Shown one piece after another: positions 32,801-56,479 of a DNA stretch of 64,000 nt. Each line of letters begins with the position of its first letter. The first letter of the stretch is position 1. The notes beneath the pieces were generated by a model, which saw only the letters and a program-made list of their open reading frames with translations, was not told the origin of the DNA and made no database searches. Location: the NCBI GenBank assembly GCA_965198365.1, contig OZ240617.1, positions 83,752 through 147,751 on the forward strand, read 5' to 3'. Made by a program: the position numbers and the translations under genes. The DNA comes from Candidatus Aldehydirespiratoraceae bacterium. Lineage in GTDB: Bacteria; Actinomycetota; Acidimicrobiia; Acidimicrobiales; Aldehydirespiratoraceae.

Positions 32801-32950
32801 CGACCGACCACTGAAGCGCATCGGTGTAGTAGGTGCCTTCAGCCACATCGCCATACCGGCTACACCGGCCGCCGGCGGCCCCGAGATCATCAGCGAGGCA
32901 GCAGCCAAGCTCAGCACCACCCCACACCAACCAAGCAATCGGGGCCTCAT
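29895..32950 (-). pseudogene. SLH + 21 RCC1-like repeat surface protein with a 1-nt frameshift after the signal peptide
   Basis: Signal-like MRPRLLGWCGVVLSLAAASLMISGPPAAGVAG starts at 32950 behind AAGGAGG but is out of frame with YGDVAEGTYY (SLH) near 32855; 21 HxCGLRxDG..xCWG repeats counted. Confidence 0.75.
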
Positions 32951-33044
32951 CTGACTGACAACCCCTCCTTGAAACCGGCGTGGGCCGACCTTAGCATCCT
33001 GCTGCTCGTCTCATCGGGCGTGTCGGCCAGCGGCGGAAGTGGGG

Positions 33045-36000: not shown

Positions 36001-36569
36001 AGCACGGCGCTTCTGGGCGCGTACGTGGTGGCGCTGGTGCCTTTGGTGATGTCGAGTCCGTAGATGCGGCCGATGTCGTTGATGGCGAAGGAGTCTTCGG
36101 GTACATCGGTGAACGGTGTCTCGGCGATTTCTGCTGGGTTTCCGGTCACTTGGCGATAGGTGCGCGCCATGAATGCGGCCATTTCTTCGCGGGTTACTTC
36201 GTCACGTGGGCGGTAGCGGTTGTCTGATGTTTGAGTGATGCCGAGTTCTAGTAGGCAGCGGATGTCGTTGAAGGCGAAGCTGTTGGGGTCGACATCGGTG
36301 AATGGCAGCGTGCCTGTGTCGGATGGGCAGGTGACGGTGTCTTCGGTTTCGGTTTCGGTTTCGGTTTCGGTTTCGGTTTCGGTTTCGGTTTCGATTTCGG
36401 TTTCGATTTCGGTTTCGGTTTGGGCGGTGGCTGTGGTTGTAGCTAGTCCGACTGTGCTGGCGAGCATGATGAGGGCGATTGCTGCTCGCATGAGGCGAAG
36501 CAGGTTTGACCGAGTTGATCGGTGTGACTTCAGTGCCCGCGCTTTTTTGTCGGTGACTGCTGATCTCAT
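33045..36569 (-). CDS. Secreted SLH(x3)-FN3(x8) surface protein, paralog 1
   Basis: Signal peptide, FTDV/TRE SLH repeats, FN3 strands (V.W.PP.D.GG..IT.Y.V.W, Y.VRVRA.N); (TE)n linker. Confidence 0.9.
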   Translation of the reverse strand: MRSAVTDKKARALKSHRSTRSNLLRLMRAAIALIMLASTVGLATTTATAQTETEIETEIETETETETETETETETEDTVTCPSDTGTLPFTDVDPNSFAFNDIRCLLELGITQTSDNRYRPRDEVTREEMAAFMARTYRQVTGNPAEIAETPFTDVPEDSFAINDIGRIYGLDITKGTSATTYAPRSAVLRSHMALFIARLYKAVTGVDAPVVNTEFTDIGSRSPEQQKAIAQIYGLGVTTGTTPTTFSPRAGVTREQMASFIARLYRTLTNTTAEAPSGLTTEPSGDDGTELTVTWEGPSFTGGNTVTGYVVQWKSGDEDYATTRQHSSRVPTTKIPGLTKGTEYTLRVAAVNAGGNGPWSVETTGTPAVAPGLVSNFNVESGNMELTLTWEPPTDDGGSDITGYLVQWTANRRVKPLEFLIDDAAQRSHTITGLRNTTAANPSAYYVWITAINAYGQGSLTPAPNGKPISPSTVGADLPSELAVTPSETSGTELIAEWRAPRDDGGEPVESYRVERNCATSSGSTGWVTTGIPGNPAGRVDVPNVPTEKYSITITGLENGQPCDVRVRAVNAKTSSTGPWRWVSATATPVQVPGPPGLDTTGVLSAHEALQVIWTPPADTGGGVVTGYEITYSSGGTPQQINVTGSVTSTTITGLTNGFGYTVSVKAISGSGRSQPSPAVTAVPKAVPAAPRNVAAGSPPAVDTSGNAVVVDPESLLVTWDPPANNGTNAVLGYVVEYRESFVPRSSPDAYDEVRAGDWTEVILTAAHINSRTVTITGLKDRRSGSATGRGVSFDVRVRATNDHDGDGSTNNPTPTEGGPWAMTSAAPATQPGSIGADEFDSEANIDIEPGFKLLTVTWNPPDDGGTPITHYLLNYAEGDTGQFETDIRVDAPAHRHTITGLDDGTTYFVVIRAVNAVGTGEYSYEISGYTSAVPPAPGTVTATAPRVNSDGSPGNGTELTITWSPVTRTNGGPPITGYEVQYRRLADPDKPVPDARYSAHVWKTVDGDTETAGTDFPLGALTAQVQSLEEGASYQVRARAVTRSGFVGTSGYAPIVKTAGVPTNVSIFAVRINDAPANEPDSTKIITWDSSGQGLDGVTSYKIRWFPSQAGAAGSSGSTTVGIGTHSYTVTDLDSGTYAAKVSACNAIGCTFEVISAYDTSTQSGDTATVP
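36342..36419. repeat. 13 x 6-bp microsatellite (TTCGGT/TTCGAT) coding the Thr-Glu linker
   Basis: 13 units counted, matching TETEIETEIETETETETETETETETE. Confidence 0.95.
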
Positions 36570-36701
36570 CGCTGCTCCGTTCTGGCGTTGGCTTCTCGCG
36601 TTTCGCCAACTGCAGTCGAATCTACCGCCTATGCGCTCAACATTCAGAACAAAGGGTGCTTGAAAGCCCCGATTTTGGGTTGGTCCGAGGGATGCGCAGG
36701 T

Positions 36702-37181
36702 TCAGGCTGGTCCGAATTGCCAGGCCGCCAGGAAGACCGAGCCGCAGATGGAGACAGTCACCACAGTGATCGCCACAACGAAGGCCCAAACATCCCTGCT
36801 GCGTTTGTCCGACAACTCCGCGAACCGGGTGTCGACCGCCGCGAAGTGCTCCTTCACCTCGGCAAAACGGGTGTCGACCGCCGCGAACTGCTCCTTCACC
36901 TCGGCGAATCGGGTGTCGACCGCCGCGAAGTGCTTCTTGATCTCCGCGAACTGCTCGGCGAGCTGTTCGCGGAGCTGCGCGAACTGGACGTCCATCTTGG
37001 CGTTGAGTGCAACGAACCCGGCCTGTGTCTTCGTCTCGAGGTCTGCCAGGTCACGTTTCGTGGCGAACTGCTCCCATCCCCCAGGTGGTTGCTGTGCCAT
37101 AAGGAACTCCGCTTCCTGTTGACCTACCGTGTCGGCAAGACTGCTGTAGATCTCGGCTCGCTGCTGCTCTGTCAGGGCCAC
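36702..37181 (-). CDS. Coiled-coil membrane-anchored protein, family A copy 1 (DUF1640/CCDC90-like head-neck-stalk-anchor)
   Basis: Head MALTEQQRAEIY, neck ATKRDL, heptad stalk FAAVDTR repeats, C-terminal TM. Confidence 0.85.
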   Translation of the reverse strand: MALTEQQRAEIYSSLADTVGQQEAEFLMAQQPPGGWEQFATKRDLADLETKTQAGFVALNAKMDVQFAQLREQLAEQFAEIKKHFAAVDTRFAEVKEQFAAVDTRFAEVKEHFAAVDTRFAELSDKRSRDVWAFVVAITVVTVSICGSVFLAAWQFGPA

Positions 37182-37298
37182 TTGGGTCTCCCATCCAATT
37201 CGTGATGATCGAGTCAGGGGGGAAGTGGCTTACGGGCATCACAGTATCATCAAAGCCATTCAGAGACAATCGAATCAGACTCAGGGCAGTCAACGCAC
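37182..37298. repeat. Conserved leader L, copy 1
   Basis: GATCGAGTCAGGGGGGAAGTGGCTTACGGGCATCACAGTATCATCAAAGCCATTCAG core, also near 41287, 44010, 44885 and 48696. Confidence 0.9.
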
Positions 37299-37329
37299 AG
37301 TTGCAGCAGGCCGACTGTCTTGGCCGGGG

Positions 37330-40300
37330 TCAGGGGTTGGGGACGTCGATGGTGGAGGTGTCGGTGTTGGTTGACTGGGCGATGATTTCGACGCTTTGTC
37401 CGATGGGGTTGATCGCGGAGACGACCACTACGTAGGTGCCGGGGGTTAGATCAGTGATGGAGAATCCGCTTGCCGATTTGCCGGGGATGTCGGCGCTGCC
37501 AGTCTTGCCGATCACTCCGACTTGGTCTGGGAACCATCTCACTCGGTAGCCGGTGATTGTGCTTTCGGTGTCGGTTGCTTCGACGCTGGTCCACGTCACT
37601 TTGAGCGTGGAGTTGTCGTTCGGGTCGAGCGCCACTTTTGGTTCGAGGGTGACATCTCGATCATCCTCATCAATCAGGACCCCTTGGCTGTCTTTGTCTA
37701 CGACTGGCACACCTGCAAGGAGGGTTGAGTCGGAGTAACCCGCGCTGCCGTGGACATAACTTGTGAGTGCTCGGATCCGGACCTCATAGCTATAGCCTCT
37801 GACGAGCCCTCCGATCGTGCCGTTTGTGGCGTCGGCGGGGAAGTCTTGGATGCCGGCGTTGTCTGCGTCGGCGTCTGCGACTGTCCAGCCGATGTTGGAG
37901 ATACTGGTTCTAGTAAAGGCGGCTGCGGCTACGGCCGGGGCGATGACACGGTATTCCGCTCGGTATCCGGTGATCGGGCCACCGCCATTGGATGCCGTTG
38001 CTGGGACCGCGGACCATGTGAGATCCAGGGTTGTGCCGTTACCACCAGGCGTCGGGCTTACCGTGACTGATTTGGGGGCCGACGGGATACCGCGGGTGTC
38101 TGCATAATGTTCGGGCGAGTTTGCGCCTTCGCCGATGCTGTTCACAGCCCGGACCCACACGACATAGCCGGTATCTCCACAGAGTCCAAACCCGGAATCT
38201 GAGTTGGGGCACAGGCCGGTGAGTGAGAGGATGGTCTGTGATGCGTCGACTTGGATCTCGGTGTATGGCGACCAGACTGGTACGACGAGTGCATACCGCA
38301 CCAGGTAGTGAGTAATGGGGCTGCCCATGTCGTCGGGCGGGAGCCAAGCGACGTTCAGTGACTTGTAGCCGCTTTCGACATCAATCGAGGCAACTGGGTC
38401 GGGTACGGTGGCCGGTATTGCGGCGTCATAATCGTACGCTCCGAGGCCTCCAGTTGGCGGGGGTCCGGGCACTGCATTTGTGGCCGCGACGCGGATGTCG
38501 TAGGACGTGCCTGTGGTCAACCCTGTGATGGTCACAGTCCTGTTTTCGAAATCGATCTCACCGACGGTGCCCTGATCCCAATCAGCGTCATCTTCTCCCG
38601 ATTCACGAACTTCAACGACGTAACCGTTCACTTCCTCTGTGTCGTTGGGTGCGGGGGCACCCCAAGTCACGATCAGTGTTTCGCTGTGGTCGGGGTGCGG
38701 GTTTCCGCTGGGAAGGGTCAACGGCGGAACGCTTGCGACCACGTTGTGCGGTGCAGCGGGTACCGGTACGGGAGAGCCTTCGGCTACTGCGTCTAGAAGT
38801 GACTCGCTGCCAGCTACGGACTCTGCCGGGAGGTCGCTTTCGCCTTGGGCAGTGACGGCTTGGACCGTCACCTTATAGATGTAGCGATTGGACAAACCGG
38901 TGATCGTGTAGGACCTCTGGCTGCTAGAAACGGTGGCATCACCTAAAAGCGCACCGGACGACCACGACACTTTGTATCCGGTGATGGGGCTGCCGCCGTC
39001 TGCGTCGGCCGGGACTCCTGTCCATGTAACTCTCAAGGTTTCGTGGAGGTTGTTGATGGCAACGTTGGTGGGCGCGCTGGGCTTGCGGGCCGGGGTGCCT
39101 CGTGCGTAGGCCCATTGATTTTCGAGCGTTGGTTCGTCGGTTTGTTGATCGCCACTGCCGTCTGCGTCGTAGTAACTGCTGGCCCGCACCCTAAGTTGAC
39201 AGCTGTCTCCGTTGGTAAAAGGCTCGTTACCTTCGAGAGGCAGGAGTATTGTCTGCTCCAGGGTGGGTGCGGGTGGGTGCGTTACGGTGTCGCCCCAGGA
39301 ACGGTCGGATCCACATCTGCGTTCAATCGTGTAGTGGAGAAGGGTCGTTCCGCCGTCGTCTGTGGGTGCCGACCAGGTAAGGGTCAATCCTCCGTCGGTT
39401 CCGATGGCTCTGAGGTTCCGCGTTGTGCTTTGTGCTTTGGCCCTCGGCGTAAACGTTGCCGGGATGGCGCCTGAACCCGGGTTGGTGATCGTGCCGGCCC
39501 CTGCAGCGTTCACAGCTTGGATTGTCACTGAATATCGTACACCGTTCTGCAAGCCACTAAGGACGTGCGACCTGGCGCGAGGATTGTCGATGTCAAACTG
39601 TTGGCGGGCATCACGGCCTTTTGCCCAGCGGACCGCATAGCCGATGATCGGGCTTCCGCCATTATCGCTTGGGGGTGCCCAGCTGAGCTTCAGCGACTCG
39701 TTGTCGGCCACTACTCTAAACGAGCGAACCAACCCTGGAACGGTGGCTGGGACAGCCGACGCTTCGTCGGACCAGTCGCCGATGCCTGCATCGCTCACCG
39801 CGGCGACACGGAAGGTGTATCGGGTGCCTTTGGTGAGGCTGTCGAAGTTGGCTGAGGTGGCGTCGACAGACATCTGTCTGTCAGCGGAGTAGATGCCGTT
39901 GCCAGACTTCCACTGGACGACATAGTGCGTAACGGCTTCAGTGCCGCTGTCGAAGGGGGGTGCCCAGCTGACCTCGAGTGCATCTCCGTCCTCGCCGCTG
40001 ATCGCGGCTTGCACACGGACCGGAGCTTCAGGGGGGACCACCTCGGGGGGGACTACCTCGGGGGGCAGGGCATCAAGCAGCCGATACATGCGTGCGATGA
40101 ACGAAGCCGTCTGGGCTCGGCTGGCGTTGTCGCTTGGCGAGTATTCCGTGGCGGAAGTGCCGGTTGTGATCCCGAGGGCGAAGATTTGAGCGATTGCGGT
40201 TTGTTCCTCGGCGCTGCGATCGCCGATGTCGGTGAATTCGGTTGTTGGCGCCGGTGCGCTGCTTTTTGCTACGGCCTCGTAGAAGCGTGACAGGAAGACG

Positions 40301-40767
40301 GCGATGTGGGCGCGCGACACAGCGCCGTCGGGCGTATACGTTGTGGCGGCGGTGCCGGTGGTGACGCCAAGTCCGTAGATGCGAGCAATGCTGTCGGCGG
40401 CCCAGTGGTCTGTCGGTACATCGGTGAACGGCGTCTCGACCACGCCTGCGTCTGTGCCCGTGACCGCTTTGTAGGTACCTGCCATGAACGCTGCCATCTG
40501 GGCGCGCGTCACGTTTTCGTCGGGTCGGAACGAGCTACCGGTGGTCTGTGTGATCTCCAGTTCCAGCAAACAGCGGATGTCGTTGAATGCGAAGTGCGTT
40601 TCTGGAACATCGGTGTACGGCAACGTGCCCTCGCCGGAGGGACACGACTCACCGCCGGTCTGCGCGCTCGATGTGACCGTTGCCAACCCGAGACTGGCTA
40701 CGACGATGACGGCCACCGCCATGGGAGCGAGTCGAAGCCCGCTCGACCGAAACGCTCGACTACGCAC
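37330..40767 (-). CDS. Secreted SLH(x3)-FN3(x8) surface protein, paralog 2
   Basis: Same architecture as paralog 1; the paralog-type start (TTG 40807) is out of frame, so GTG 40767 is used. Confidence 0.9.
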   Translation of the reverse strand: MRSRAFRSSGLRLAPMAVAVIVVASLGLATVTSSAQTGGESCPSGEGTLPYTDVPETHFAFNDIRCLLELEITQTTGSSFRPDENVTRAQMAAFMAGTYKAVTGTDAGVVETPFTDVPTDHWAADSIARIYGLGVTTGTAATTYTPDGAVSRAHIAVFLSRFYEAVAKSSAPAPTTEFTDIGDRSAEEQTAIAQIFALGITTGTSATEYSPSDNASRAQTASFIARMYRLLDALPPEVVPPEVVPPEAPVRVQAAISGEDGDALEVSWAPPFDSGTEAVTHYVVQWKSGNGIYSADRQMSVDATSANFDSLTKGTRYTFRVAAVSDAGIGDWSDEASAVPATVPGLVRSFRVVADNESLKLSWAPPSDNGGSPIIGYAVRWAKGRDARQQFDIDNPRARSHVLSGLQNGVRYSVTIQAVNAAGAGTITNPGSGAIPATFTPRAKAQSTTRNLRAIGTDGGLTLTWSAPTDDGGTTLLHYTIERRCGSDRSWGDTVTHPPAPTLEQTILLPLEGNEPFTNGDSCQLRVRASSYYDADGSGDQQTDEPTLENQWAYARGTPARKPSAPTNVAINNLHETLRVTWTGVPADADGGSPITGYKVSWSSGALLGDATVSSSQRSYTITGLSNRYIYKVTVQAVTAQGESDLPAESVAGSESLLDAVAEGSPVPVPAAPHNVVASVPPLTLPSGNPHPDHSETLIVTWGAPAPNDTEEVNGYVVEVRESGEDDADWDQGTVGEIDFENRTVTITGLTTGTSYDIRVAATNAVPGPPPTGGLGAYDYDAAIPATVPDPVASIDVESGYKSLNVAWLPPDDMGSPITHYLVRYALVVPVWSPYTEIQVDASQTILSLTGLCPNSDSGFGLCGDTGYVVWVRAVNSIGEGANSPEHYADTRGIPSAPKSVTVSPTPGGNGTTLDLTWSAVPATASNGGGPITGYRAEYRVIAPAVAAAAFTRTSISNIGWTVADADADNAGIQDFPADATNGTIGGLVRGYSYEVRIRALTSYVHGSAGYSDSTLLAGVPVVDKDSQGVLIDEDDRDVTLEPKVALDPNDNSTLKVTWTSVEATDTESTITGYRVRWFPDQVGVIGKTGSADIPGKSASGFSITDLTPGTYVVVVSAINPIGQSVEIIAQSTNTDTSTIDVPNP

Positions 40768-40977
40768 TCTGCGCGGCGCTCCCTCTCAGTGTTGCTGCTG
40801 AACTCAATACTGCTCCATAGCGGTTCGGCTCCCAGCAACGCGCTAGGACGCAGAAAACACGATTCCAACAGTCTTACACTACAAACACAGCATAATAATC
40901 ACACCTTCCAAGTCGATGTGGTTCCGGGTTCTGCAGATTGTTGATCCGCCGCTCCTCGCTCAGCTTGGGGTGAACTG

Positions 40978-41325
40978 CTAGGCCGCTATGAAGACCGAGC
41001 CGCAGATGGCGACAGTCATCACGACAATTGCCACAACGAACGCCCAAACATCTCTGCTGCGTTTGTCCGACAGTTCCGCGAACCGCGTGTCGACCGCCGC
41101 GAACTGCTTCTTGATCTCCGCGAACTGCTCAGCGAGCTGTTCGCGGAGTTGCGCGAACTGGACGTCCATCTTGGTGTTGAGTGCGACGAAACCGGCCTGT
41201 GTCTTGACCTCGAGGTCTGCCAGGTCACGTTTCGTGGCCAACTGCTCCCATCCTCCAGGTGGTTGCTGTGCCATAAGGAATTCCGCAATGGTCGAGTCAG
41301 GGGGGAAGTGGCTTACGGGCATCAC
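40978..41325 (-). pseudogene. Family A copy 2; head deleted and fused in frame to leader sequence
   Basis: Lacks MALTEQ...GQQE; junction AATTCCGC|AATGGTCGAG at about 41286; W-to-TAG change trims the C-terminus. Confidence 0.75.
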
Positions 41326-41346
41326 AGTATCATCAAAGCCATTCAG
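41287..41346. repeat. Conserved leader L, copy 2 (partial)
   Basis: Near-identical core to the other L copies. Confidence 0.9.
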
Positions 41347-41463
41347 AAATACTAATTCTGCTTGATATTGGTTCTACCGCAGGTCTGGTGATATGGTGCG
41401 TCCACTCGCTCAGCAATGGCGACAACTTCCCGAAACAAGAAACTTGACGAAGGGAGCCTTGCC

Positions 41464-41904
41464 ATGGCGGAAGGCGAGCAGGAGCGTTTTGAGCTCCTCA
41501 ACAGTTTGATCGAAGTACACGGAGAGGATGTGGCCAGGAAACTCATGGACTCCCTACCTCCATTTTCTTGGGACCAAGTCGCAACCAAAGACGATCTCAA
41601 GGCGCTGTCCACAGCGATAACGGCGAAATTCGATCAAGTCGACGCTCAGTTCACTGCTGTGGCTGCGGAGTTTGTGAATCTGCGAGGGGAGATCTCGAAG
41701 GTCGAGGGCAACCTCTCCAAAGAGATCGCAGGACTATCGAGAGAAGTCGGCAAGCTAGACAGCAAATTCTCCACAAAGATCGGACAGCTCGACAGCAGTT
41801 TCTCCAAGAAGATCACGGAACAGACTCGAGTAATGGTGCTGACGATGGCAGGGTTCTCGGTGGCCGTGTGCTTGGCTATGGCAGGCGGCATCCTCTTCGC
41901 CTGA
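41464..41904 (+). CDS. Coiled-coil membrane-anchored protein, family B copy 1
   Basis: LPPFSWDQVATKDDL neck, heptad/hendecad stalk, C-terminal TM; GAAGGGAG RBS before ATG 41464. Confidence 0.85.
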   Translation: MAEGEQERFELLNSLIEVHGEDVARKLMDSLPPFSWDQVATKDDLKALSTAITAKFDQVDAQFTAVAAEFVNLRGEISKVEGNLSKEIAGLSREVGKLDSKFSTKIGQLDSSFSKKITEQTRVMVLTMAGFSVAVCLAMAGGILFA

Positions 41905-41993
41905 CCGCACAGCTCAGAGTTCCAGTGTCTTGGACCCGTCTAGTGTCGCTTCGGGTCGGGTGGCGGCTTTGGTCATGAACGAGCTGGGGACGG

Positions 41994-42209
41994 TTACGTT
42001 GGCGGCTCGTGGTCGGCTGTTACCGGCCAGCCATGCGGTCTCAGTATGGCTACCTGCATCACTCCTGGTTCATCTCTGTTCAAGAACTCACCGCTATCCC
42101 ACCGACGCGCGAACTCGATCCCGTCGATATCCAGGGGACGACGAGCTGCGTCATCGAAGATCTCCCACTGCTCTTCGGCGGAGATGAGTTCGAAACTCAC
42201 ACCTGCCAT
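41994..42209 (-). CDS. Small hypothetical protein (antitoxin-like, no adjacent partner)
   Basis: FDDAARR.L.IDG.EFARRWDSGE motif; AGGAG RBS. Confidence 0.55.
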   Translation of the reverse strand: MAGVSFELISAEEQWEIFDDAARRPLDIDGIEFARRWDSGEFLNRDEPGVMQVAILRPHGWPVTADHEPPT

Positions 42210-42274
42210 CGCTCAGCTCCTCCCGTTCACAGCACAACATACCAGTGCCATAGGCAAGGGGCAGATCAAAAACC

Positions 42275-42353
42275 GAATCCGACGAATGGCAGCACATTGG
42301 TGAATCTGTCGTTACGAAGGCGCGTACCAGCGTGAGCCTCTTAGAGGTGGGCC
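42275..42353. repeat. Intergenic repeat B, copy 1
   Basis: Matches 44084-44160; contains the CCTCT-T-AGAGG palindrome. Confidence 0.85.
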
Positions 42354-42454
42354 GCTACTAACTGGAGGACAAAACTTCGCTGTGCTCTATCGTGCTGGTT
42401 CCGGGTCATCAAGAGACTTGGTTGCTCTGTCGTGGAAAAAGTCGCCGAGCCGGC
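42354..42454. repeat. Intergenic repeat C, copy 1
   Basis: Matches 48033-48133 (AACTGGAGGA...GCTCTATCG...ATCAAGAGACTYGGTTGCTCT). Confidence 0.8.
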
Positions 42455-42541
42455 CCCACCGAAGCAAACGCGTCAAACGCGCCCGCTTGCGGGTTCCGCA
42501 TCACGTTGCGCATACTAGAGCCCCCCCTAGAGGTACACCAC

Positions 42542-42793
42542 ATGTCTAACGATGCGGCTTCACAAGTCGAATCGAACTACGCCATCTACCTCGATAAGTA
42601 CAAGGACGAGGCAGAGCGATACCACAAGGGCGAGGTCGCGCTGATGGTTGACTGCGAGATCATAGAGTACTTCCCGACAGCCGGCGACGCGTACGACGCA
42701 GGCTGCGAACGGTATGGTTTGGGGAACTTCTCAATCCAAGAGATCGGAGCCGCTCCGATCGGCCTCGGTGCTCAGTCTCTCGAATTGCTATAG
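42542..42793 (+). CDS. Small DUF5678-like protein, copy 1
   Basis: NY..Y......HKGEVALM.D.EII..F.....AY..G...YG.G.FSI..IG pattern shared with 45281-45529; GAGG RBS. Confidence 0.65.
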   Translation: MSNDAASQVESNYAIYLDKYKDEAERYHKGEVALMVDCEIIEYFPTAGDAYDAGCERYGLGNFSIQEIGAAPIGLGAQSLELL

Positions 42794-42825
42794 CTGCAGC
42801 GCCAGTTCTTCGCCTAAGCAGTGCC

Positions 42826-43332
42826 ATGGGGTCCGTGAGTGTAATCAGGGGAGATCTATTCGAGTCGAACGCGCAAACCTTGGTGAATACGGTCAACTGC
42901 GTTGGCGTGATGGGCAAAGGTGTCGCGCTGCAGTTCAAGAAGCGGTTCCCGGATATGTTTGCGGAGTATGCCCGTCGTTGTCGCGACGGCGAGGTCCAGC
43001 CTGGTGAGCCGTACCTTTGGGCGCCTTTGGTTCCCCCCTGGGTGTTGAACTTCCCAACAAAGGACCACTGGCGTTCAGTCGCGAAACTTCAAGACATCGT
43101 CGACGGGCTCGACTACCTCAGAGAGCATTACGAAGGTTGGGGTATCGAGTCGATGGCCGTGCCTTCGCTTGGCTGCGGGGAAGGTCAGCTTGACTGGCAT
43201 GTCGTTGGTCCTGTCCTGGTTCGCAAGCTCAGCGAATTCAACATTGATGTCGAGCTGTACGCGCCTCTCGATGCAACCGACCGAGGTATTTCCGCCTCAG
43301 GACATCGTGTGGAGAGGGTCCCTCACCTTTGA
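42826..43332 (+). CDS. Macrodomain (DarG-like ADP-ribose glycohydrolase), N-terminal domain only
   Basis: GDLF, NTVNCVGVMGKGVALQFK, NFPTKDHWR, PSLGCGEGQLDW; ends just after ELYAP; no darT neighbour. Confidence 0.85.
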   Translation: MGSVSVIRGDLFESNAQTLVNTVNCVGVMGKGVALQFKKRFPDMFAEYARRCRDGEVQPGEPYLWAPLVPPWVLNFPTKDHWRSVAKLQDIVDGLDYLREHYEGWGIESMAVPSLGCGEGQLDWHVVGPVLVRKLSEFNIDVELYAPLDATDRGISASGHRVERVPHL

Positions 43333-43372
43333 GATGCGCGAGTTCCTGGAGCAGTTCACCCCTAGTCGGAAC

Positions 43373-43609
43373 CTAGAATCCCTGTGTGGAGTTCGACGCG
43401 ACCATACGCCCGAGGTTGGGAGCCGAGGCGCGGGCTGCAGGGAAGTAACTCTGTTCGGCCAACTCATAGGCGGCAATAAGATCGGAGACACCGGCCTCGT
43501 ACTGCGCCAACCCTTCTATCGCTTGGTCAGCTGTCAGTCCAATCGAGTCGTCAGTGATTGGGGCTGTGCCCCCAACAGTAATCTCTACTCGAGTTTGACC
43601 ATCTGACAT
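43373..43609 (-). CDS. Hypothetical protein (78 aa)
   Basis: ATG start 9 nt after the family A copy 3 stop; plausible composition. Confidence 0.45.
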   Translation of the reverse strand: MSDGQTRVEITVGGTAPITDDSIGLTADQAIEGLAQYEAGVSDLIAAYELAEQSYFPAARASAPNLGRMVASNSTQGF

Positions 43610-43618
43610 GACGGTTAT

Positions 43619-43993
43619 TCAGGCTGGTACGAATTGCCAGGCCGCCAAGAAGACTGAGCCGCAGATGGAGACAGTAATCACGGCGATTGCCACAACGAAC
43701 GCCCAAACGTCTCTGCTGCGTTTGTCCGACAGATCAGCGAACCGCGTGTCGACTGCTGCGAATCGCTCAGCGAGCTGTTCGCGGAGCTGCGCGAACTGGA
43801 CGTCCATCTTGGCGTTGAGTTCGACGAATCCGGTCTGTGTCTTGAGCTCAAGGTCTGCCAGGTCACGTTTGGTGGCCAACTGTTCCCATCCTCCAGGTGG
43901 TTGCTGTGCCATAAGGAACTCCGCTTCCTGTTGACCTATCGTGTCGGCAAGACTGCTGTAGATTTCGGCTCGCTGCTGCTCTGTCAGGACCAC
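43619..43993 (-). CDS. Family A copy 3 (shortest stalk, 124 aa)
   Basis: Paralog of 36702-37181; GTG start at 43993; the upstream leader happens to be in frame. Confidence 0.85.
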   Translation of the reverse strand: MVLTEQQRAEIYSSLADTIGQQEAEFLMAQQPPGGWEQLATKRDLADLELKTQTGFVELNAKMDVQFAQLREQLAERFAAVDTRFADLSDKRSRDVWAFVVAIAVITVSICGSVFLAAWQFVPA

Positions 43994-44160
43994 TATGGTC
44001 TCCCTCCAATTCGTGATGATCGAGTCAGGGGGGAAGTGGCTTACGAGCATCACAGTATCATCAAAGCCATTCAGAGACAATCTAATCCGACGAACGGCAG
44101 CACATTGGTGAATCTGTCGTTACGATGACGCGTACCAGCTTGAGCCTCTTAGAGGTGGCC
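43994..44160. repeat. Leader L copy 3 joined to repeat B copy 2
   Basis: L core runs into AATCCGACGAACGGCAGCACATTGGTG...CCTCTTAGAGGTGG. Confidence 0.9.
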
Positions 44161-44169
44161 AAGCCGAGC

Positions 44170-44191
44170 AAAGCCCGCTCCGGCGGGCTTT
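44170..44191. terminator. Bidirectional Rho-independent terminator
   Basis: AAAGCCCGC-TCCG-GCGGGCTTT. Confidence 0.8.
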
Positions 44192-44204
44192 TGCGCGTCA
44201 TCTG

Positions 44205-44390
44205 TTAGAAGCAACCTGTCCCAGCCAAAATGTGCCATGCAAGTCGGAGTTGTTCGGTCTCGAAGCGACCCAACTCTCCCTGCTCGCGAAGTTCCGGTAT
44301 CGTCGTATCCGCCTCGTCAAGGACTTTCTGAATGAGGATGTCAAGTTCTTCTTGGCTGCCGATTTCTTCGACAACCGGTGTTAGGCCCAT
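44205..44390 (-). CDS. 61-aa hypothetical protein G, copy 1 (orphan)
   Basis: Same length and near-identical to 51347-51532; AGAAAGG RBS. Confidence 0.7.
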   Translation of the reverse strand: MGLTPVVEEIGSQEELDILIQKVLDEADTTIPELREQGELGRFETEQLRLAWHILAGTGCF

Positions 44391-44467
44391 GCTGGGTTTT
44401 GCCTTTCTGGCTTTTGCGCAAGCGCTGTCTGCGTGAACAAGGTCAACCACCCGACTCGCTGTCTTCG

Positions 44468-44869
44468 CTAGTTGAGGCTGACCACGACACTGACGATCGC
44501 GACACAAAGAACCAACAACGTCAAGAAGTTTGCATAGAAGACACTTGCACGTCTCTCAGAAGTCTTGCCCGACTGCGCAACCATCCCAGCGAGAACAACT
44601 TGGACAGCGGCAAAGCCTTCCCTCATCTCGACGCGGACTGTGCTGAGACCGACTTCCAAGTCCTGCTTGGTGGCAAACTCCTGCTTGATGGCGTCCTCAA
44701 GAGCCTTGAGGTCCTGCTTGGTGGCAAACTCCTTGAGGTCTTGTTTGGTGGCCAACTGTTCCCAGCCGCCTGGTGGATGGTTTGCCATAAGGAACTCCGC
44801 TCCCGGTTGACCTATCGTGTCGGCAAGGCTGCTGTAGATTTCGGCTCGCTGCTGCTCTGTCAGGGCCAC
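44468..44869 (-). CDS. Family A copy 4: A-type head with an unrelated triple-neck stalk and anchor
   Basis: MALTEQQRAEIY...PPGGWEQLATK, then ATKQDL x3 and a different TM. Confidence 0.85.
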   Translation of the reverse strand: MALTEQQRAEIYSSLADTIGQPGAEFLMANHPPGGWEQLATKQDLKEFATKQDLKALEDAIKQEFATKQDLEVGLSTVRVEMREGFAAVQVVLAGMVAQSGKTSERRASVFYANFLTLLVLCVAIVSVVVSLN

Positions 44870-45063
44870 TATGGTCTCCCATCCAATTCGTAATGATCGA
44901 GTCAGGGGGGAAGTGGCTTACGGGCATCACAGTATCACCAAAGCCATTCAGAGACAATCGAATCAGACTAACGGCAACCAACGCACACTTCGAGTGATAC
45001 GGTACGGGTACTCGTTCAGCAATGGCGCCAACTTCCCATCACAAGCAACTTGACACCATGGCA
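44870..45063. repeat. Leader L copy 4 plus segment M (family B upstream region), B gene absent
   Basis: Near-identical to 48681-48879 except the GAAGGGAACTTG RBS segment is missing. Confidence 0.9.
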
Positions 45064-45280
45064 GTGTCTACGACAAGGAGGAGGCCTAGCAACGACGACC
45101 GCCGCCACCCGCTGAACGCTCCGAGCGGAGTAAAAAATCGTACCCAATGCCCAGGTGCGACACCACACAGATGTAGTATTAGTGGACACACGCCAGAGGA
45201 GAGAGGGCATCAACCATGGCGGATGCGCTTACCGCTTCTTCAGCAGCGGTCGCTTCGGAGATCGATGTCGCCGCCCGAGC

Positions 45281-45529
45281 ATGAGAACCATCGACGAGCA
45301 GGTCCAAAAGAACTACGAGGCTTACATCAACGAACACCAAGCTGAAATGGAACAGACCCATCTCGGCAAAACCCTCCTCATGCACGACGAAGAGATCATT
45401 GACATGTTCGAGGACCCAGGAATGGCTTACCTCCGCGGCTACGAGGAATACGGACTTGGGCAGTTCACGCTCATCACAGTCGGCGAAAAACCTGTCCAAC
45501 TCGGCGTGATGTCGATAGCACTGGCATAA
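45281..45529 (+). CDS. Small DUF5678-like protein, copy 2
   Basis: MRTIDEQVQKNYEAY...HLGKTLLMHDEEII; preceded by a 22-codon ORF (45216-45284) overlapping by ATGA. Confidence 0.65.
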   Translation: MRTIDEQVQKNYEAYINEHQAEMEQTHLGKTLLMHDEEIIDMFEDPGMAYLRGYEEYGLGQFTLITVGEKPVQLGVMSIALA

Positions 45530-45539
45530 CCCGCCCGTC

Positions 45540-45938
45540 GTGCCCACGTTCAACGTCGAGATCGTCGACGACCGAATCATGGTTGAAGCGACGCTCTCTG
45601 TACCGCCCGACGGCCCGAAGAGCGATCCGTTCACGGCTCTGGTTGATACAGGTGCTCAGGCCACGATGATCTCGGAAAAGGTTGCCAACGCACTCGGTGC
45701 GGCCTCCGTGGGTAGGAGAAATATCGTTTCGCTCGGCGGGGAGCCCGTCGAGTCACCCGTGTACAGACTCAGGATCAGCGTTGGGAGCAGCACATCAGGG
45801 ACCTTTTCCGCGTGGAAGGAACTCTACGTACAGCTACTCCCGGCTGATCCACCGAATTTTGATGTGCTGTTAGGTATGGACATCCTCGCTTCGTTTCACA
45901 TCACCATGCACGACGGGTACTTCACCCTTAGGGACTAG
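45540..45938 (+). CDS. Retropepsin-like (clan AA) aspartyl protease
   Basis: ALVDTGA catalytic motif and VLLGMDIL. Confidence 0.85.
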   Translation: MPTFNVEIVDDRIMVEATLSVPPDGPKSDPFTALVDTGAQATMISEKVANALGAASVGRRNIVSLGGEPVESPVYRLRISVGSSTSGTFSAWKELYVQLLPADPPNFDVLLGMDILASFHITMHDGYFTLRD

Positions 45939-46132
45939 CAACCCACGAGAACCACCAACAACCGACCGCCACCAGACTTCACACCATGACTACCCAACGC
46001 ATACGGAGGACCCGGTGACCGGGCCCATCATGAACCTGAGGTCGACGCCGAACGTCCCCCAGCGGAGTATGCCAACTCCGCTCGCCGCGGCGCTGACCGG
46101 AGCGTTTGGCAGCACTAATCGGCTGACAGTGG

Positions 46133-46495
46133 TCAGTCGTCCAGCGTCCAGCGGGTCGGGTCGAGGCCCTCTTGGGTGGCGTAGGTGTGCCAGCTGAGGA
46201 AGTGGGTCTCGGGGGGTGCGGGGATGCCGGCTGCGTGGGTTACTTCGGGTAGGTATGACCAGTAGCCGGTGGTGGTTCGGTGCCGACGGGTCGAGATGAC
46301 GCCTTCTGTGGCGAGTCGACCTAGGCAACCACCGAGGAAGCTGGACGCTGAGTACCTTGTCTTCTTTCTGCTTGAGTGGCCCCAGCGTCGAACCATCTGG
46401 GCATAGGTGGTGGGATACGCGATCTTGTAGCGGTGTTCGATGATGCCGTATTCGAGCCATTGGTCGGAGTTGTCGATGCATTGGATCAACGCGTC
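46133..46495 (-). pseudogene. 5'-truncated copy of the 50338-50883 gene
   Basis: IQCI..SDQWLEYGIIEHRY onward matches; the Zn-ribbon N-terminus is missing. Confidence 0.8.
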
Positions 46496-47343
46496 GTGAA
46501 GCGGCGCATGACATCACATGGGTAAAGGAGGACTTCGCAACTCGCAGACGCGACGTTGTGCTCACTGAGGCTTGGGATCGGTTCTGCGAGGCAGTGAAGC
46601 ACAAGACACGATTCGTTATCTGGTTTCAAAATCTCGAAGACGAGGACCCGTACACCGGAGAGATTTCTCCGGCCAAAATTCTTGAGCACATCACATGGCT
46701 CTTTGAGCCACTGGATCTCGTGCGAGTCCTTCCTGCTGCCCACCGAGTCTGGCGTGCGCGCCCGCATTCGGCGCCGATCGAGCACACAGCGTCCCAGTTG
46801 GGAACAGTCCCCGAAGAACTGGCGATTCGAGCCAACCGGATGAGCCCGGCGGGTATTCCTCTGTTCTATGGGGCAGCTGATTCGGATACGGCAGTTGAGG
46901 AAGTCGCTTCCTCATCCGAGGGCACACACGTCACCTGGTGCGAGTTCGAACTCACCGAAGACCTGAGGGTGGTTGATCTCACACGGCTGCCAGCCGTTCC
47001 GAGCATGTTCGACCCAGAGCTAGGACAGTTGCGTCGCTATATTAGGTTTCTCCACATGTTCGTTAAGCAACTCATTGCTCCTGTCGGGACAGATCGCGAA
47101 GACATTGAGTACGTCCCAACCCAGATCGTCTCCGAATATCTGCTCCACGTCCTTGATGGCGGCGAGCAAGTTAGAGGTCTGATCTATCAGTCCTCTATTG
47201 CCCAAGGAGCGTGTGTGGCTTTGGATATCCGCAACGACCATTGCATAGGTCCCGAGACTCCCGCAGAGAGCAATCCCCCACATCTAAGGCTTGTGGCTGA
47301 CAGCATCAGGTCTGCTGCAAGGCCGGACCTATCGACATTGTAG
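46496..47343 (+). CDS. RES-domain protein (HEPN/RES-associated type), probably 5'-truncated
   Basis: WDRFCEAVKHKTRF, RANRMSPAGIPLFYGA, EYVPTQIVSEYL, LIYQSS; frame open upstream of GTG 46558 to the junction with the truncated neighbour. Confidence 0.75.
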
Positions 47344-47733
47344 GAGCCGGGGGAAGGTCGCCTGGCGCGTTGGTTCCGGTGGTGTTGCTGGTGATTAGTA
47401 CGGTGCCTCGGGCGGCGAGCACGGGATCTGTGGTGGAGAACCCAGCTGACGGCTTCTGTGGCGAGTCGACCGAGGGAACCACCGAGGTGGAACTGCGAAC
47501 CTGACCTCGTCCCCAGGATCCAATAATGCGGGGAAGCGTCTCAGGGTTGAGATGTGCAAGGTGGTTCGGCGAGGGTGAGTACGCGGTCACTGAGTCCGTC
47601 AAGGGCAGCAACCATAACCCTGAGAGGAAGGTCACCCCCTACTTCTCCCTCGTAGCCACCGATGTCCAATCCGAGTTCATAGAGAAATCGCGCGTAGCTC
47701 TCCACTTCTTCGGTTTTGTAAGGAAGGAAATAG

Positions 47734-47997
47734 TCAAGCTTCGATCGTGCTGGGAATTCGACTTTGCCCCGCCGCAAACCCCAGATGTTCAGCACCGACA
47801 ACGTCCCGCTGTTGGATCGTAGGCAGTTGACTCGCAACGAGAATCCGTTCTGTCGTACCGAATCGGGACTGTCCCGCGAAGTCGAATATCCCAGAAGCTC
47901 CGAACAGATAATCCCGCAAGGGTCGACGTCGTTGTGCAATCGGATGGGGCGGTTGGGAGCGCCCCTCAGCGATTTCAGTTTCGTTCGCAGTAGTCAT
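47734..47997 (-). CDS. Hypothetical protein, possibly degraded
   Basis: ATG-started 87-aa ORF; downstream frames look broken. Confidence 0.3.
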   Translation of the reverse strand: MTTANETEIAEGRSQPPHPIAQRRRPLRDYLFGASGIFDFAGQSRFGTTERILVASQLPTIQQRDVVGAEHLGFAAGQSRIPSTIEA

Positions 47998-48032
47998 TCG
48001 ACATCCATTTGCGGGTCCCGAGCGCCTAGGTT

Positions 48033-48133
48033 GCTACCCAACTGGAGGAAAGACACGGCTCTGCTCTATCGGCCTGGTTTGGGGTAATCAAGAGACTCGG
48101 TTGCTCTCTCGTAGAGAAAGTCGGCAAGCCGGC
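48033..48133. repeat. Intergenic repeat C, copy 2
   Basis: Matches 42354-42454. Confidence 0.8.
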
Positions 48134-48260
48134 GGCCGTATGCCTCGGGCGTTTCGTCTGGTCGGCTGCGGAGAATTTCCTTTGGTGGGTCGTCTTTAGG
48201 CATCCCATCTTGACTAGCGGCCATCAGTCTTGCCTCTCTTGTAGTCGCTGGTCCGAATTG

Positions 48261-48680
48261 CTAGGCGGCTATGAAGACCGAGCCGCAGATGGCGACAGTC
48301 ATCACGACAATTGCCACAACGAACGCCCAAACATCTCTGCTGCGTCTGTCCGACAGCTCCGCGAACCGCGTGTCGACCGCCGCAAACCGGGTATCTATCG
48401 CCGCAAACCGGGCGTCGACCGCCGCGAACTGCTTCTTGATCTCCGCGAACTGCTCGGCGAGCTGTTCGCGGAGTTGCGCGAACTGGACGTCCATCTTGGC
48501 GTCGAGTTCGACGAATCCGGCCTGTGTCTTGAGCTCAAGGTCTGCCAGGTCACGTTTCGTGGCGAACTGCTCCCATCCTCCAGGTGGTTGCTGTGCCATA
48601 AGGAACTCCGCTTCCTGTTGACCTATCGTGTCGGCGAGGCTGTTGTAGATCTCGGTTCGCTGCTGTTCTGTCAGAGCCAC
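48261..48680 (-). CDS. Family A copy 5 (139 aa)
   Basis: Paralog with FAAVDAR-FAAIDTR-FAAVDTR heptads; TGG-to-TAG change removes WQFGPA. Confidence 0.85.
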   Translation of the reverse strand: MALTEQQRTEIYNSLADTIGQQEAEFLMAQQPPGGWEQFATKRDLADLELKTQAGFVELDAKMDVQFAQLREQLAEQFAEIKKQFAAVDARFAAIDTRFAAVDTRFAELSDRRSRDVWAFVVAIVVMTVAICGSVFIAA

Positions 48681-48879
48681 TTTGGTCTCCCGTCCAATTC
48701 GTAATGATCGAGTCAGGGGGGAAGTGGCTTACGGGCATCACAGTATCATCAAAGCCATTCAGAGACAATCGAATCAGACTAACGGCAACCGACGCACACT
48801 TCGAGTGATACGGTACGGGTACTCGTTCAGCAATGGCGACAACTTCCCATCACAAGCAACTTGACGAAGGGAACTTGCC
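48681..48879. repeat. Leader L copy 5 plus segment M (complete divergent intergenic region)
   Basis: Lies between head-to-head family A and family B genes. Confidence 0.9.
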
Positions 48880-49266
48880 ATGGCGGCAGGCGAGGGGGAG
48901 CGTATTGAGCTCCTCAACAGTTTGATCGAAGCGCTCGGAGAGGATGTGGCCCACAAACTCATGGACTCCTTACCTCCATTTTCTTGGGACCAACTCGCAA
49001 CCAAAGACGACCTCAACGCGTTGTCGACGTCGATCACCGCGAAGTTCGACCAAGTCGACGCACAGTTCACTGCGGTGGCAGCAGAGTTCGTGAGTCTGCG
49101 CGGGGAGATATCCAAAGAGATCGCAGGACTATCGATAAAGATCGGCGAACTCAATAGCAGTTTCTCCAAGAAGATCACGGAACAGACCCGAACCATGGTG
49201 CTGATGATGGCGGGTTTCTCGTTGACCGTCTGCGCAGCAATGGCCGGCGGCATCCTGTTCGCCTGA
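48880..49266 (+). CDS. Family B copy 2 (128 aa)
   Basis: Paralog of 41464-41904, 18 aa shorter in the stalk. Confidence 0.85.
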   Translation: MAAGEGERIELLNSLIEALGEDVAHKLMDSLPPFSWDQLATKDDLNALSTSITAKFDQVDAQFTAVAAEFVSLRGEISKEIAGLSIKIGELNSSFSKKITEQTRTMVLMMAGFSLTVCAAMAGGILFA

Positions 49267-49682: not shown

Positions 49683-49810
49683 GTGCAACGAACTTGGTGG
49701 ACAACCGTCTGGAGCGGTGACCGCATCGAAGTGACGCGCGGCATCAACACCGCGTCAGTTGACCTGATCTATCTTGACCCGCCGTTCAACTCCAACGCCG
49801 ACTACGCCAA
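49683..49810 (+). pseudogene. N-terminal remnant of an N6-adenine DNA methyltransferase
   Basis: WSGDRIEVTRGINTASVDLIYLDPPFNSN (motif IV DPPF), then homology stops. Confidence 0.75.
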
Positions 49811-51602: not shown

Positions 51603-51708
51603 GATCTCGCAACAGTCGTCAACTTATCTCGACCGGCTAAGCGATTCGGTCTGGCGTCAGTTGATCGGATCTATCTTGACCCGCCGTGCAACTCCAACGC
51701 CGACTACT
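51603..51708 (+). repeat. Repeat D joined directly to a second methyltransferase remnant
   Basis: GATCTCGCAACAGTCGT...CCGGCTAAGCG matches 49412-49456; SVDRIYLDPPCNSNADY matches 49753-49806. Confidence 0.85.
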
Positions 51709-51775
51709 CCCCCATCTGAGCGGTAGCCGCTGGCCGGATAGGCGACTGTCACACCCCGATAGTACCCTGACCGGC

Positions 51776-55700: not shown

Positions 55701-56190
55701 GCCCACGAATCACAGGCGCGTCAGGAGCATACGTCGTAGGTGTAGTGCCTGTCGTGATTTTGAGCCCAGCGATACGAGCAATGTCATCCTCGTTGGCATC
55801 CCCAGCCACATCGGTGAAGTCGTGCTCAACAACCGGTGCCGGGCTTCCCGTGAGAACTCGGTATGCCCCGGCCATGAACCGGGCCATCTCCGAACGAGTC
55901 ATATCAGCGCCGGGCCTGTAAGTGTTACCCGGAGCGGGGATGCCCAGTTCTTTAAGACATGCGATGTCGTCGGCGTGGGTGCCGCCTGCGACGACATCGG
56001 AATAGTTATCGGTGCCAGATGGGCACGAACTACCGCCGTCCTGCGCTGTCGCTGTGACCGTAGCCAAACCGAGACTGCCAGCGACGACGACAAAGGCCAC
56101 CGCCATGCGCACTAGGCGAAGGACACTCGACCGAATCTGCTGGCTTGGCACCTTCACCGGCACTCCCTTCCCCGTTACTGCTGAACTCAT
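52777..56190 (-). CDS. Secreted SLH(x3)-FN3(x8) surface protein, paralog 3
   Basis: Same architecture; N-terminus nearly identical to paralog 4. Confidence 0.9.
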   Translation of the reverse strand: MSSAVTGKGVPVKVPSQQIRSSVLRLVRMAVAFVVVAGSLGLATVTATAQDGGSSCPSGTDNYSDVVAGGTHADDIACLKELGIPAPGNTYRPGADMTRSEMARFMAGAYRVLTGSPAPVVEHDFTDVAGDANEDDIARIAGLKITTGTTPTTYAPDAPVIRGHMALFLTRLYKVVAGRAAPTGTTAFTDIGRRSAEQRTAIGQIFALKVTTGTTRTTYSPLNNVTRDQMASFVARIYRVLDALETAPGAPTGVAAEASGSNGDALEISWTAPDRDDVTGYVVQWKSGDDDFTDDNEESVDGTSTTLDDLTKGTSYTFRVAAVSEDGQGDWSDEASGTPATVPGSVSDFTATAGNELLELAWEAPDEDGGSPVTGYVVQWVAGRGSRQKTEVDAAATSYTIRGLDNNQSYSVWIQAVNAVGAGTITAPAGQDGALGPISPSPVAAGAPANLTAATGRDDFNRELFIATELDLSWSEPVNSGGANFIDFDVAYRCGTNVAWTTPFNSPVLHVSTTRVYYHTVTGLTPGVRCEVRVRANSYSELSKPANNRFDQGTDEELTGPWATVSATPATAPGAPTDIEVTNAHQALHVTWAAPVTPGGANPLPGDAPNNGGSPITGYEITWDDGGRATVGVAARSYTVTGLDNRYNYTVAVRTVNATGKSAAGSVIAGRSLTVKPEAVNSAPRNVVAVPPPVFTGVTHSSDTLKVSWDAPASNGTTPPHDYVVQYRTAFVPAIRGVRGTTPAGAWNTSGVATVDPVNRKVDITLLNPGTRYEVRVQAVNIPNPRTAPAATANGPWATSSGTPSTVPYKVVVATEDVETGFTSLNVRWAPPNDNETGGSPVTHYLVRYAIDTLGSPFSSDIRVNAPTTRVRISGLRPDTNYVVQVQAVNASGKGPSSDETPGFTAGVPSAPTSVRAVSVPTTIENATGNSLRVSWAAVTQSNGGGAIAGYLVQYRPVSETGVWTTEPWSTTNVVTPDLRQRVAIITGLIEGQHYLVRVRATANNPGSSAYSSVVKSEGVPVVGTGFEEHNLDPRMSINTAVSRTTINVEWNSIAATDVRSNVTGYKVRWYPTTPGAAGRTGSVNVSGKSTSSYAITGLTLGFYTVVVSAVNHIGNSEEILAVSDAGRTTIEVARPS

Positions 56191-56474: not shown

Positions 56475-56479
56475 TTGTA

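Follow-up and report, generated by a model that had tools for sequence, protein, structure and literature searches.

This analysis concerns a 64,000-nt stretch of DNA (the window, C1:83752-147751) from the 3.75-Mb single-contig genome of a Candidatus Aldehydirespiratoraceae bacterium, and within it a set of small genes, termed A and B, together with the leader sequence, L, that precedes the A genes. The closest public relatives of the genome are Acidimicrobiales metagenome-assembled genomes labelled 'Candidatus Aldehydirespiratoraceae', whose isolate names (SB0670_bin_1, COS4_bin_1 and RHO3_bin_4) resemble what we take to be names of sponge-metagenome bins. Seven of the ten family members in the genome lie within the window (A1-A5, B1 and B2); the others are A6, which has an L of its own, at 2.255 Mb and B-like genes at 2.390 Mb and 3.741 Mb. 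We consider it probable that the A/B set is a lineage-specific expansion of one gene family, every copy of which has its own control region. An earlier note on this DNA had presented the locus as an undescribed system composed of two protein families; this was overstated, as A and B are paralogues within a single gene family (tblastn E about 1e-10) that has expanded in one lineage. In the following, L1-L5 are the leaders, three-digit L labels (L014 etc.) are the loci compared, G labels are genomes and P labels are metagenome proteins.

The arrangement described in the earlier note was recovered both by BLAST and from the coordinates, i.e. there are five leaders, each abutting an A gene on the minus strand, and two B genes transcribed divergently from A genes. 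The first A units alternate with giant genes for surface proteins with SLH domains and FN3 repeats, in the minus-strand order A2, FN3-2, L1-A1, FN3-1. A1 (36702-37181, minus strand) encodes 159 amino acids comprising a head, an ATKRDL neck and a C-terminal transmembrane helix, and its stalk is the longest in the window, with 91 residues from neck to anchor. Its leader L1 (37182-37299, minus strand) contains a putative extended -10 element (TGATACTGT) and a 5' untranslated region (5'UTR) with an anti-start segment, GCCAC, and a segment, UUCCCC, complementary to the Shine-Dalgarno (SD) sequence. FN3-1 (33045-36569, minus strand) begins 132 nt downstream of A1, and FN3-2 (37330-40767, minus strand), which has 46% amino acid identity to FN3-1 at a synonymous divergence (dS) of 1.25, lies between A2 and L1-A1. 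A2 (40978-41286, minus strand) is a 'headless' variant in which a deletion took the 3' part of L and codons 1-23; its open frame extends into L, to 41325, and the distal two thirds of the leader remain as L2 (41287-41372, minus strand), which is a weak match to the L covariance model (E 1.7e-6).

Divergent from A2, the first copy of the B leader (41388-41463, plus strand) reads TGATATGGT and then CAACUUCCC, which is predicted to pair with the SD sequence GGGAG, and AUGGCGA is predicted to pair with UUGCCAU across the start codon (folding z -2.0). It is followed by B1 (41464-41904, plus strand), which encodes 146 amino acids counted from the homologous ATG; a start at the ATG further upstream (41416) would give 162. 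Next comes a partial seventh L remnant (42271-42350, plus strand), comprising the distal end and upstream flank without an A gene and 93% identical to 44079-44158. A3 (43619-43993, minus strand; 124 amino acids from the homologous GTG) has the shortest stalk, with 56 residues from neck to anchor, and is preceded by L3 (43994-44110, minus strand). A4 (44468-44869, minus strand; 133 amino acids) is a chimera of two subfamilies, and its leader L4 (44870-44987, minus strand) is 99% identical to L5. Beside L4 stands a B leader without a B gene (44994-45061, plus strand), as the earlier note had seen; it is one of three copies of a 68-nt segment, and downstream of it there is instead a small open reading frame (ORF; 45155-45529) and an aspartyl protease gene (45540-45938). 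The locus is completed by A5 (48261-48680, minus strand; 139 amino acids), by L5 (48681-48800, minus strand), which served as the reference copy, and, divergently, by the third B leader (48805-48879, plus strand) and B2 (48880-49266, plus strand; 128 amino acids).

Members of the family share one build: a helical head of about 35 residues, a PPxxW(E/D)Q-ATKxD(L/V) neck, a stalk built of 7-residue repeats (9-residue in some subfamilies) and a single C-terminal membrane helix. The motif PPxxW(E/D)Q-ATKxDL had already been noticed as common to A and B, and its invariant columns were found in both, the full set of invariant residues being M28, P32, P33, W36, Q38, A40, T41, K42, D44 and L45; in an alignment of 38 sequences A40, T41, K42 and D44 were invariant or nearly so. 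An AlphaFold2 monomer model of A1 (mean pLDDT 82) has helices at residues 5-19, 21-30, 36-40, 42-124 and 128-155, i.e. the head is modelled as two short helices and the helix is interrupted at T41 of the ATK motif. Most ORFs of the family, including all seven in the window, have a C-terminal uncharged stretch of at least 18 residues. A basic cluster (KRSR) precedes the last helix and there is no signal peptide, which suggests that the proteins are tail-anchored, with head and stalk on the cytoplasmic side. All known beta-layer proteins are homotrimers (PMC4786415), and by analogy with them we infer that the neck forms a trimeric beta-layer.

Both A and B pairs are under purifying selection, with ratios of nonsynonymous to synonymous substitution (dN/dS) of 0.12-0.43 within and between genomes, and the same is true of the headless A2 type (dN/dS 0.11-0.24). 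A profile of the head and neck (62 residues) matched 3216 clusters (50% identity) at E<=1e-3 and 1061 at E<=1e-10; these are unannotated, their sequences typically run ...LMEHLPPVGWADVATKRDL..., and they share the architecture of A and B. Scans of A and B against Pfam, NCBIfam and PHROGs, and with PADLOC, gave only sub-threshold coiled-coil noise, and the full-length profile matched only generic coiled coils in the PDB. The Foldseek search of the monomer model against the PDB returned no match (best E 4), as would be expected for a long single helix, and the head (residues 1-38, with PPxxW) had no detectable relative in Pfam or the PDB. In the C-type subfamily the stalk contains runs of FATKQDLKE nonads: P0122 has six consecutive ones and A4 has three nonad-like units. 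This subfamily is therefore predicted to form an alpha/beta coiled-coil fibre like that of Tcar0761.

Several copies differ in where they stop. In A2 and A5 a TGG>TAG change makes the tail six codons shorter; A2 (40978-40995) and A5 (48261-48278) end at this TAG, while A1, A3 and A6 keep TGG (AAW-QFGPA). Homology carries on for about 15-20 nt past the TAG of A2 and A5, and a single in-frame TAG, at some position, is present in several A-type matches from other genomes (G014 and G016). A fourth B-like paralogue (L003:5459-5461, C1 about 3741459, minus strand) has an in-frame TGA at the codon for a glycine conserved in its orthologues (TEAIG > TETL*), with the frame open and conserved on either side. 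This TGA could be a recent nonsense mutation or a sequencing error, or the protein could start at the next ATG (MESLPP...).

The leader is about 118 nt long, and with its 99-nt core as the BLAST query the copies of L were 94.7-100% identical over 61-99 nt (E 1e-26 to 1e-51). A count of L over the whole genome, which the earlier note had called for, gave a sixth copy, before the sixth A gene at 2.255 Mb, and the covariance model likewise found six. At least 25 loci, in at least 8 genomes, have L (70-97% identity) immediately 5' of an A-type start. With the covariance model, 10 of the 16 other genus members had between 1 and 10 copies and virtually none were detected outside the genus; each match that was cross-checked lay at an A-type start, and three were not paired with a listed locus. 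Copies of L differ by 1-nt indels, which break any reading frame, and we therefore rejected L as a coding sequence or upstream ORF and regard it as non-coding. It nevertheless changes more slowly than synonymous sites: the copies in the window are 93-99% identical, as against a gene dS of 0.27-0.40, and at L013 the leader is still 76% identical at a gene dS of 0.73. In line with the earlier note, L is a conserved, functional leader and not debris.

We read L as a promoter followed by a 5'UTR. The promoter, in our reading, consists of TTGTCT, 17 nt and TG-n-TAC(T/G)GT, a putative extended -10 element, which we take to be of the actinobacterial TANNNT type. The upstream half of L we read as a promoter or operator acting at the DNA level. 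In the putative 5'UTR of about 50 nt, GCCACU is predicted to pair with AGUGGC, over the GUG start, and UCCC with the GGGA of the SD sequence. These consensus helices were paired in 94.8% of cells across 27 sequences, as compared with 36-57% for slid controls; there were compensatory changes at three pairs (e.g. GUCAC/GUGAC in L017), and none of 500 shuffles reached the covariation score. The strongest argument for a design in which the SD sequence is paired comes from comparing the predicted folds of leaders across subfamilies: those in subfamilies B, B3, C, D, E and F, and that of the distant L066, differ in sequence, and each is predicted to fold a C-rich tract, 30-45 nt before the SD sequence, back onto it, with most gaining an outer helix over the start region. 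Folding z was -3.1 to -4.5 for the D and F type leaders. Predicted SD pairing averaged 0.80 in the family and 0.64 in 400 control genes (Mann-Whitney p 4e-6, the samples not being independent).

A number of results weigh against this reading of the leader. The generic sigma-70 scan did not call the L promoter. Single-sequence folding z for L is weak (-0.8 to -2.5), and for the B3, L037, L045 and L066 leaders it is about 0. SD pairing lies just moderately above a high genomic background, the leaders being non-independent, and in the B4, L034 and L059 leaders it is predicted to be below the control median. Covariation within L is sparse, since L barely varies. Lastly, the entire 118 nt are conserved, including the promoter spacer, and the hairpin alone offers no explanation for this. 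With Rfam 15 there were no matches in the window, and one chance match (E 8.3) around L5 and the B leader. The upstream half of L was also considered as a structured RNA and rejected on inspection, as its predicted helix GCCGUU:AAUGGC is not kept in other copies.

The family is present in all 16 other genomes of the genus, at 1-27 copies; elsewhere in the order it is patchy, and it was found in 44 of 401 genomes of the phylum. Its copies often form arrays. The head-to-head A/B unit is real and recurrent, since the A2-B1 module (window 40967-41934) occurs as at least three tandem copies of about 1 kb, at 89-90% identity, in OZ242187 (L014). The headless A2 form is also found there, three times, and in L041. 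Recombination between paralogues, as had been supposed, is documented by A4: its L and codons 1 to about 44 are A-type, sharing 92% identity with the A5 region, the remainder belongs to the C-type (89% identity to L037), and the crossover lies within 44736-44790, the segment coding for PPGGWEQLATK. A-type stalk alleles differ by FAAVDTR units, and the A-type spacing from neck to anchor is exactly divisible by 7 in 25 of 37 cases (56 to 98), with 8 more in one other register. A1 and A2 differ by a dS of only 0.26, i.e. they are far less diverged than the adjoining FN3 genes (dS 1.25); A units have therefore been homogenised or replaced independently of their flanks. A simple tandem duplication of [A-FN3] was rejected on the same two values.

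Two rival explanations concern the origin of the repeats. The first is that L, A and B are leftovers of decaying segmental duplications, without selection or function. The region at 41.9-52.5 kb is indeed a mosaic of duplicated fragments (families D5, D9, D10 and D14-D19), A2 has been cut short, a B leader stands without its gene, and A2 and A5 carry the TGG>TAG change. Such decay is contradicted by dN/dS of 0.1-0.4 in every pair, the truncated A2 type included, by an L that is more conserved than synonymous sites and recurs beyond the window, both at 2.255 Mb and in 10 further members of the genus, before A-type genes wherever this was cross-checked, and by a family of more than 3000 clusters; we regard it as extremely unlikely. 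The other is that the units are a self-mobilising or site-specific cassette, resembling a miniature inverted-repeat transposable element, an integron or an insertion sequence, with L as its end. In keeping with this, homology begins at the 5' edge of L (or of the B gene) and ends at the A stop codon, giving units of cassette size; the A copies are far younger than their FN3 neighbours; and the units occupy many different contexts across genomes. However, no transposase- or integrase-sized ORF was found at 40.9-52.7 kb (none exceeds 261 amino acids), nor any tRNA, inverted repeat or shared flank, and the search for target-site duplications or fixed insertion ends that the earlier note had proposed found no target-site duplication, the flanks being unrelated immediately past the A and B stop codons. 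The distance and orientation of L relative to the A start are also constant, as in a leader, and the chimera, tandem arrays and heptad-step changes are signatures of homologous recombination. A cassette is therefore very unlikely, and the term 'self-amplifying' used in the earlier note is unsupported. The evidence points to copies that were multiplied by homologous recombination and not by a mobile element.

The neighbourhood of the A genes is marked by FN3/SLH giant genes, which lie within 3 kb of 10 of the approximately 29 A-type loci in relatives and adjoin A1 and A2 in the window, while FN3-1-like sequence occupies only about 0.7% of the genome. Their relative orientation varies (same-strand downstream, same-strand upstream, divergent and convergent), and an A-FN3 operon was rejected as a general rule for this reason. 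The earlier note's suggestion of surface-protein and defence cargo therefore stands as far as the strong enrichment of A units beside FN3/SLH genes is concerned, and falls as regards 'cargo', as no other neighbour recurs and orientation is inconsistent. Within the window the giant genes form a cluster at 29895-40767 and 52777-60055, with SLH-like matches in the pair of genes spanning 52.8-60.1 kb; the array is interrupted by the island that contains A and B genes (41-52.5 kb). FN3-1 contains a low-complexity (TE)n / TEIE run, encoded by a 12-nt repeat at 36318-36442.

The island at 41.9-52.5 kb also carries genes for a DarG-like macro protein, a RES-domain protein and an aspartyl protease, as well as apparent methylase fragments. 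The DarG-like macro protein stands alone (168 amino acids, 42826-43332, plus strand; PADLOC DarG E 7e-65, Pfam Macro E 2e-16), and no DarT-like toxin gene was recognised beside it; upstream is a 133-amino-acid ORF (42392-42793), the paralogue of which at 45155-45529 precedes the aspartyl protease. The RES-domain protein (46558-47343, plus strand; E 5e-15) is accompanied by a fragment of a HEPN/RES N-terminal domain, and second copies of parts of its gene and of the genes around it lie at 49.9-50.7 kb (repeat families D5, D9, D14, D15 and D18). Two 57-nt copies, at 49752-49808 and 51654-51710, are 93% identical and correspond to a DNA-methyltransferase motif region (DLIYLDPPFNSNADY); the ORFs that contain them are short and look fragmentary. 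In three genomes B3 lies between a methyltransferase gene and a prenyltransferase gene, read as UbiE-like and MenA-like, and the D type gene lies beside one read as a cysteine desulfurase. At L062, L063 and L066, in distant Actinomycetota, short members of 104-152 amino acids stand beside ORFs read by eye as genes of toxin-antitoxin systems (PIN/VapC-like, MazF/PemK-like, DUF2283-like and RHH/CopG-like).

Two explanations assign the proteins a specific role. One holds that A and B act together with the SLH-FN3 surface proteins or in phage exclusion, being induced by envelope or phage stress via the leader. The enrichment beside FN3/SLH genes favours it, as does the position of A genes 58-210 nt upstream of them on the same strand at four places, namely L008, L011 and two sites in the window, and a defence role could draw on the DarG-like macro domain, RES toxin and methylase fragments of the island, on the PIN, MazF and RHH readings beside distant members, and on weak matches to phage families of unknown function (e.g. 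phrog_17872, E 1e-6). However, orientation relative to FN3 is inconsistent, the predicted topology places head and stalk in the cytoplasm, A and B gave nothing beyond coiled-coil noise against PADLOC-DB 2.0 (E 3e-4 or worse), single-copy subfamilies (B3 and D type) occur in housekeeping contexts, and toxin-antitoxin genes could just be frequent in genomes of this kind. A role in defence or at the envelope is compatible with where the genes lie, and we consider it unlikely. The other explanation, which is in our view fairly unlikely, is that divergent A and B genes each supply one of the two subunits of a hetero-oligomer and are co-regulated from back-to-back promoters. Head-to-head A/B pairs occur in at least five loci of three other genomes and are amplified as a unit, a TGATAC(T/G)GT box is present in both leaders, about 60-70 nt apart, and in yeast two DUF1640 paralogues, Put6 and Put7, build a hetero-oligomer (PMC7519068). 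Set against this, most A genes (A1, A3, A4 and A6) stand without a B partner, B3 and B4 likewise lack an A, and the neck-to-anchor lengths of paired A and B proteins neither match nor correlate (63/83, 77/65, 56/90, 56/72, 77/79 and 84/68). An in-register mixed coiled coil is unlikely given these mismatched lengths, and the A+B heterotrimer in register was rejected on the same ground.

What the sequence comparisons show, then, is one selected family with a constrained leader, which has spread and diversified via homologous recombination. Within this reading of a recombining family expansion, transcription of an A gene would start from an actinobacterial-type extended -10 promoter and yield a 5'UTR of about 50 nt, in which the CUUCCCC tract would pair with the SD sequence GGGAG and GCCAC with the GUG start, so that translation would be off until the hairpin opens. 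Judging from the sequences, recombination takes place between the conserved ends of the units, i.e. L with the head-coding DNA on one side and the anchor-coding DNA on the other, and generates tandem arrays, gene conversion, chimeras between subfamilies, head deletions and whole-heptad gains or losses of the stalk. By analogy with MCUR1, CCDC90B and Put6-Put7, the proteins may serve as trimeric scaffolds, anchored in the membrane, on which a small head is kept at a fixed distance from the membrane's inner face, with stalk length as the property that varies and with expression gated post-transcriptionally. A further-reaching form of this idea is that the leaders, in which occlusion of the SD sequence and start would be conserved in design across most of the subfamilies examined and divergent in sequence, are a new class of translational switch that silences a large, unannotated family of tail-anchored alpha/beta coiled-coil proteins until a membrane, envelope or phage cue arrives, and that the heptad 'accordion' and paralogue recombination are a selected means of generating a set of ruler lengths tied functionally to the adjacent giant SLH-FN3 proteins; this we consider decidedly unlikely.

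The analysis defines a large unannotated DUF1640-like branch of more than 3000 clusters (50% identity) in Actinomycetota-type metagenomes, with a recognisable head-neck signature. The branch reaches up to 27 copies in presumably sponge-associated Acidimicrobiia, where stalk length shifts by whole heptads, and its genes come with a conserved leader, a candidate for translational control with no counterpart in Rfam. Should this leader prove to be a genuine switch, it would represent a new RNA motif; otherwise the locus would simply be a thoroughly documented example of concerted evolution within a plastic genomic island. To our knowledge, prokaryotic DUF1640-like proteins have no assigned function.

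How close the family lies to DUF1640 depends on the part of the protein that is compared. The beta-layer consensus, [aliphatic]-A-T-K-[polar]-[DE], is prominent at the stalk start of DUF1640 membrane proteins, and nonad arrays of it are found in Tcar0761 (PMC4786415). Both the motif at the stalk start and a DUF1640-type coiled-coil stalk ending in a single C-terminal transmembrane helix are present in A and B, and the ATK segment of the head-neck profile, its sole part with PDB matches, aligns with the solved beta-layers 6H9L (E 0.009), 5APZ and 5APW. The likeness claimed in the earlier note thus holds for the ATKxD(L/V) beta-layer neck as described (PMC4786415) and fails for the Pfam model, which no protein of the genome matches. 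Against placing the family within DUF1640, PF07798, the gathering score of which is 33.5 bits, gave no match to the A and B proteins at E<=1 and none at E<=10 in a six-frame search of the whole genome. On the side of a link, its only matches among the 401 phylum genomes were L059 and L060 (31.9 and 31.8 bits; 47.7 summed), both members of the head-neck family, and 2 of 10 scanned representatives (P0144 and P0185) scored 21.9 bits; the near-threshold matches span the repetitive stalk and anchor only, where coiled-coil bias inflates scores. The A/B family is therefore built like DUF1640 and probably lies on its periphery, being outside by Pfam's own criterion and having an unmatched head.

Comparison with known systems brings out what is shared and what is particular to the family. 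In the DUF1640/CCDC90-like proteins (MCUR1, CCDC90B, Put6/Put7 and prokaryotic members) the order of head, ATK neck, stalk and C-terminal anchor is that of A and B, the bulk of the protein faces the matrix or cytoplasm, as is predicted for A and B, and there are paralogue pairs in both. Unlike these proteins, A and B have stalks made of recent 7- or 9-residue repeats that differ in length between copies, a copy number that is high and variable (1-27), and a conserved leader predicted to occlude the SD sequence and start. Among the alpha/beta coiled coils (Thermosinus Tcar0761 and DUF3782 stalks; 5APZ, 5APW and 6H9L) the ATK(D/E)D(I/L) motif is identical to that in A and B, and the C-type proteins (A4 and P0122) repeat the ATK motif every 9 residues just as Tcar0761 repeats MATKDDIAN (PMC4786415). 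Unlike the Tcar0761-type proteins, A and B are anchored in the membrane, have a different head and lack an endonuclease domain, and most members have a single ATK layer followed by heptads. The DUF16/MPN010 proteins of Mycoplasma pneumoniae are likewise small coiled coils with an N-terminal beta-layer, many paralogues and repeat-mediated recombination, but they gave a marginal match only (E 0.06-0.18), i.e. no significant sequence relation to A and B. As far as we know, DUF16 proteins also have neither the C-terminal anchor nor the conserved leader of A and B. At the level of RNA, the predicted fold of the family leaders, in which a pyrimidine tract faces the SD sequence and a second helix lies over the start, resembles that of SD-sequestering 5'UTRs such as the ROSE and fourU thermometers and the expression platforms of translational riboswitches; unlike riboswitches, the family leaders show no evident conserved core of the ligand-binding kind.

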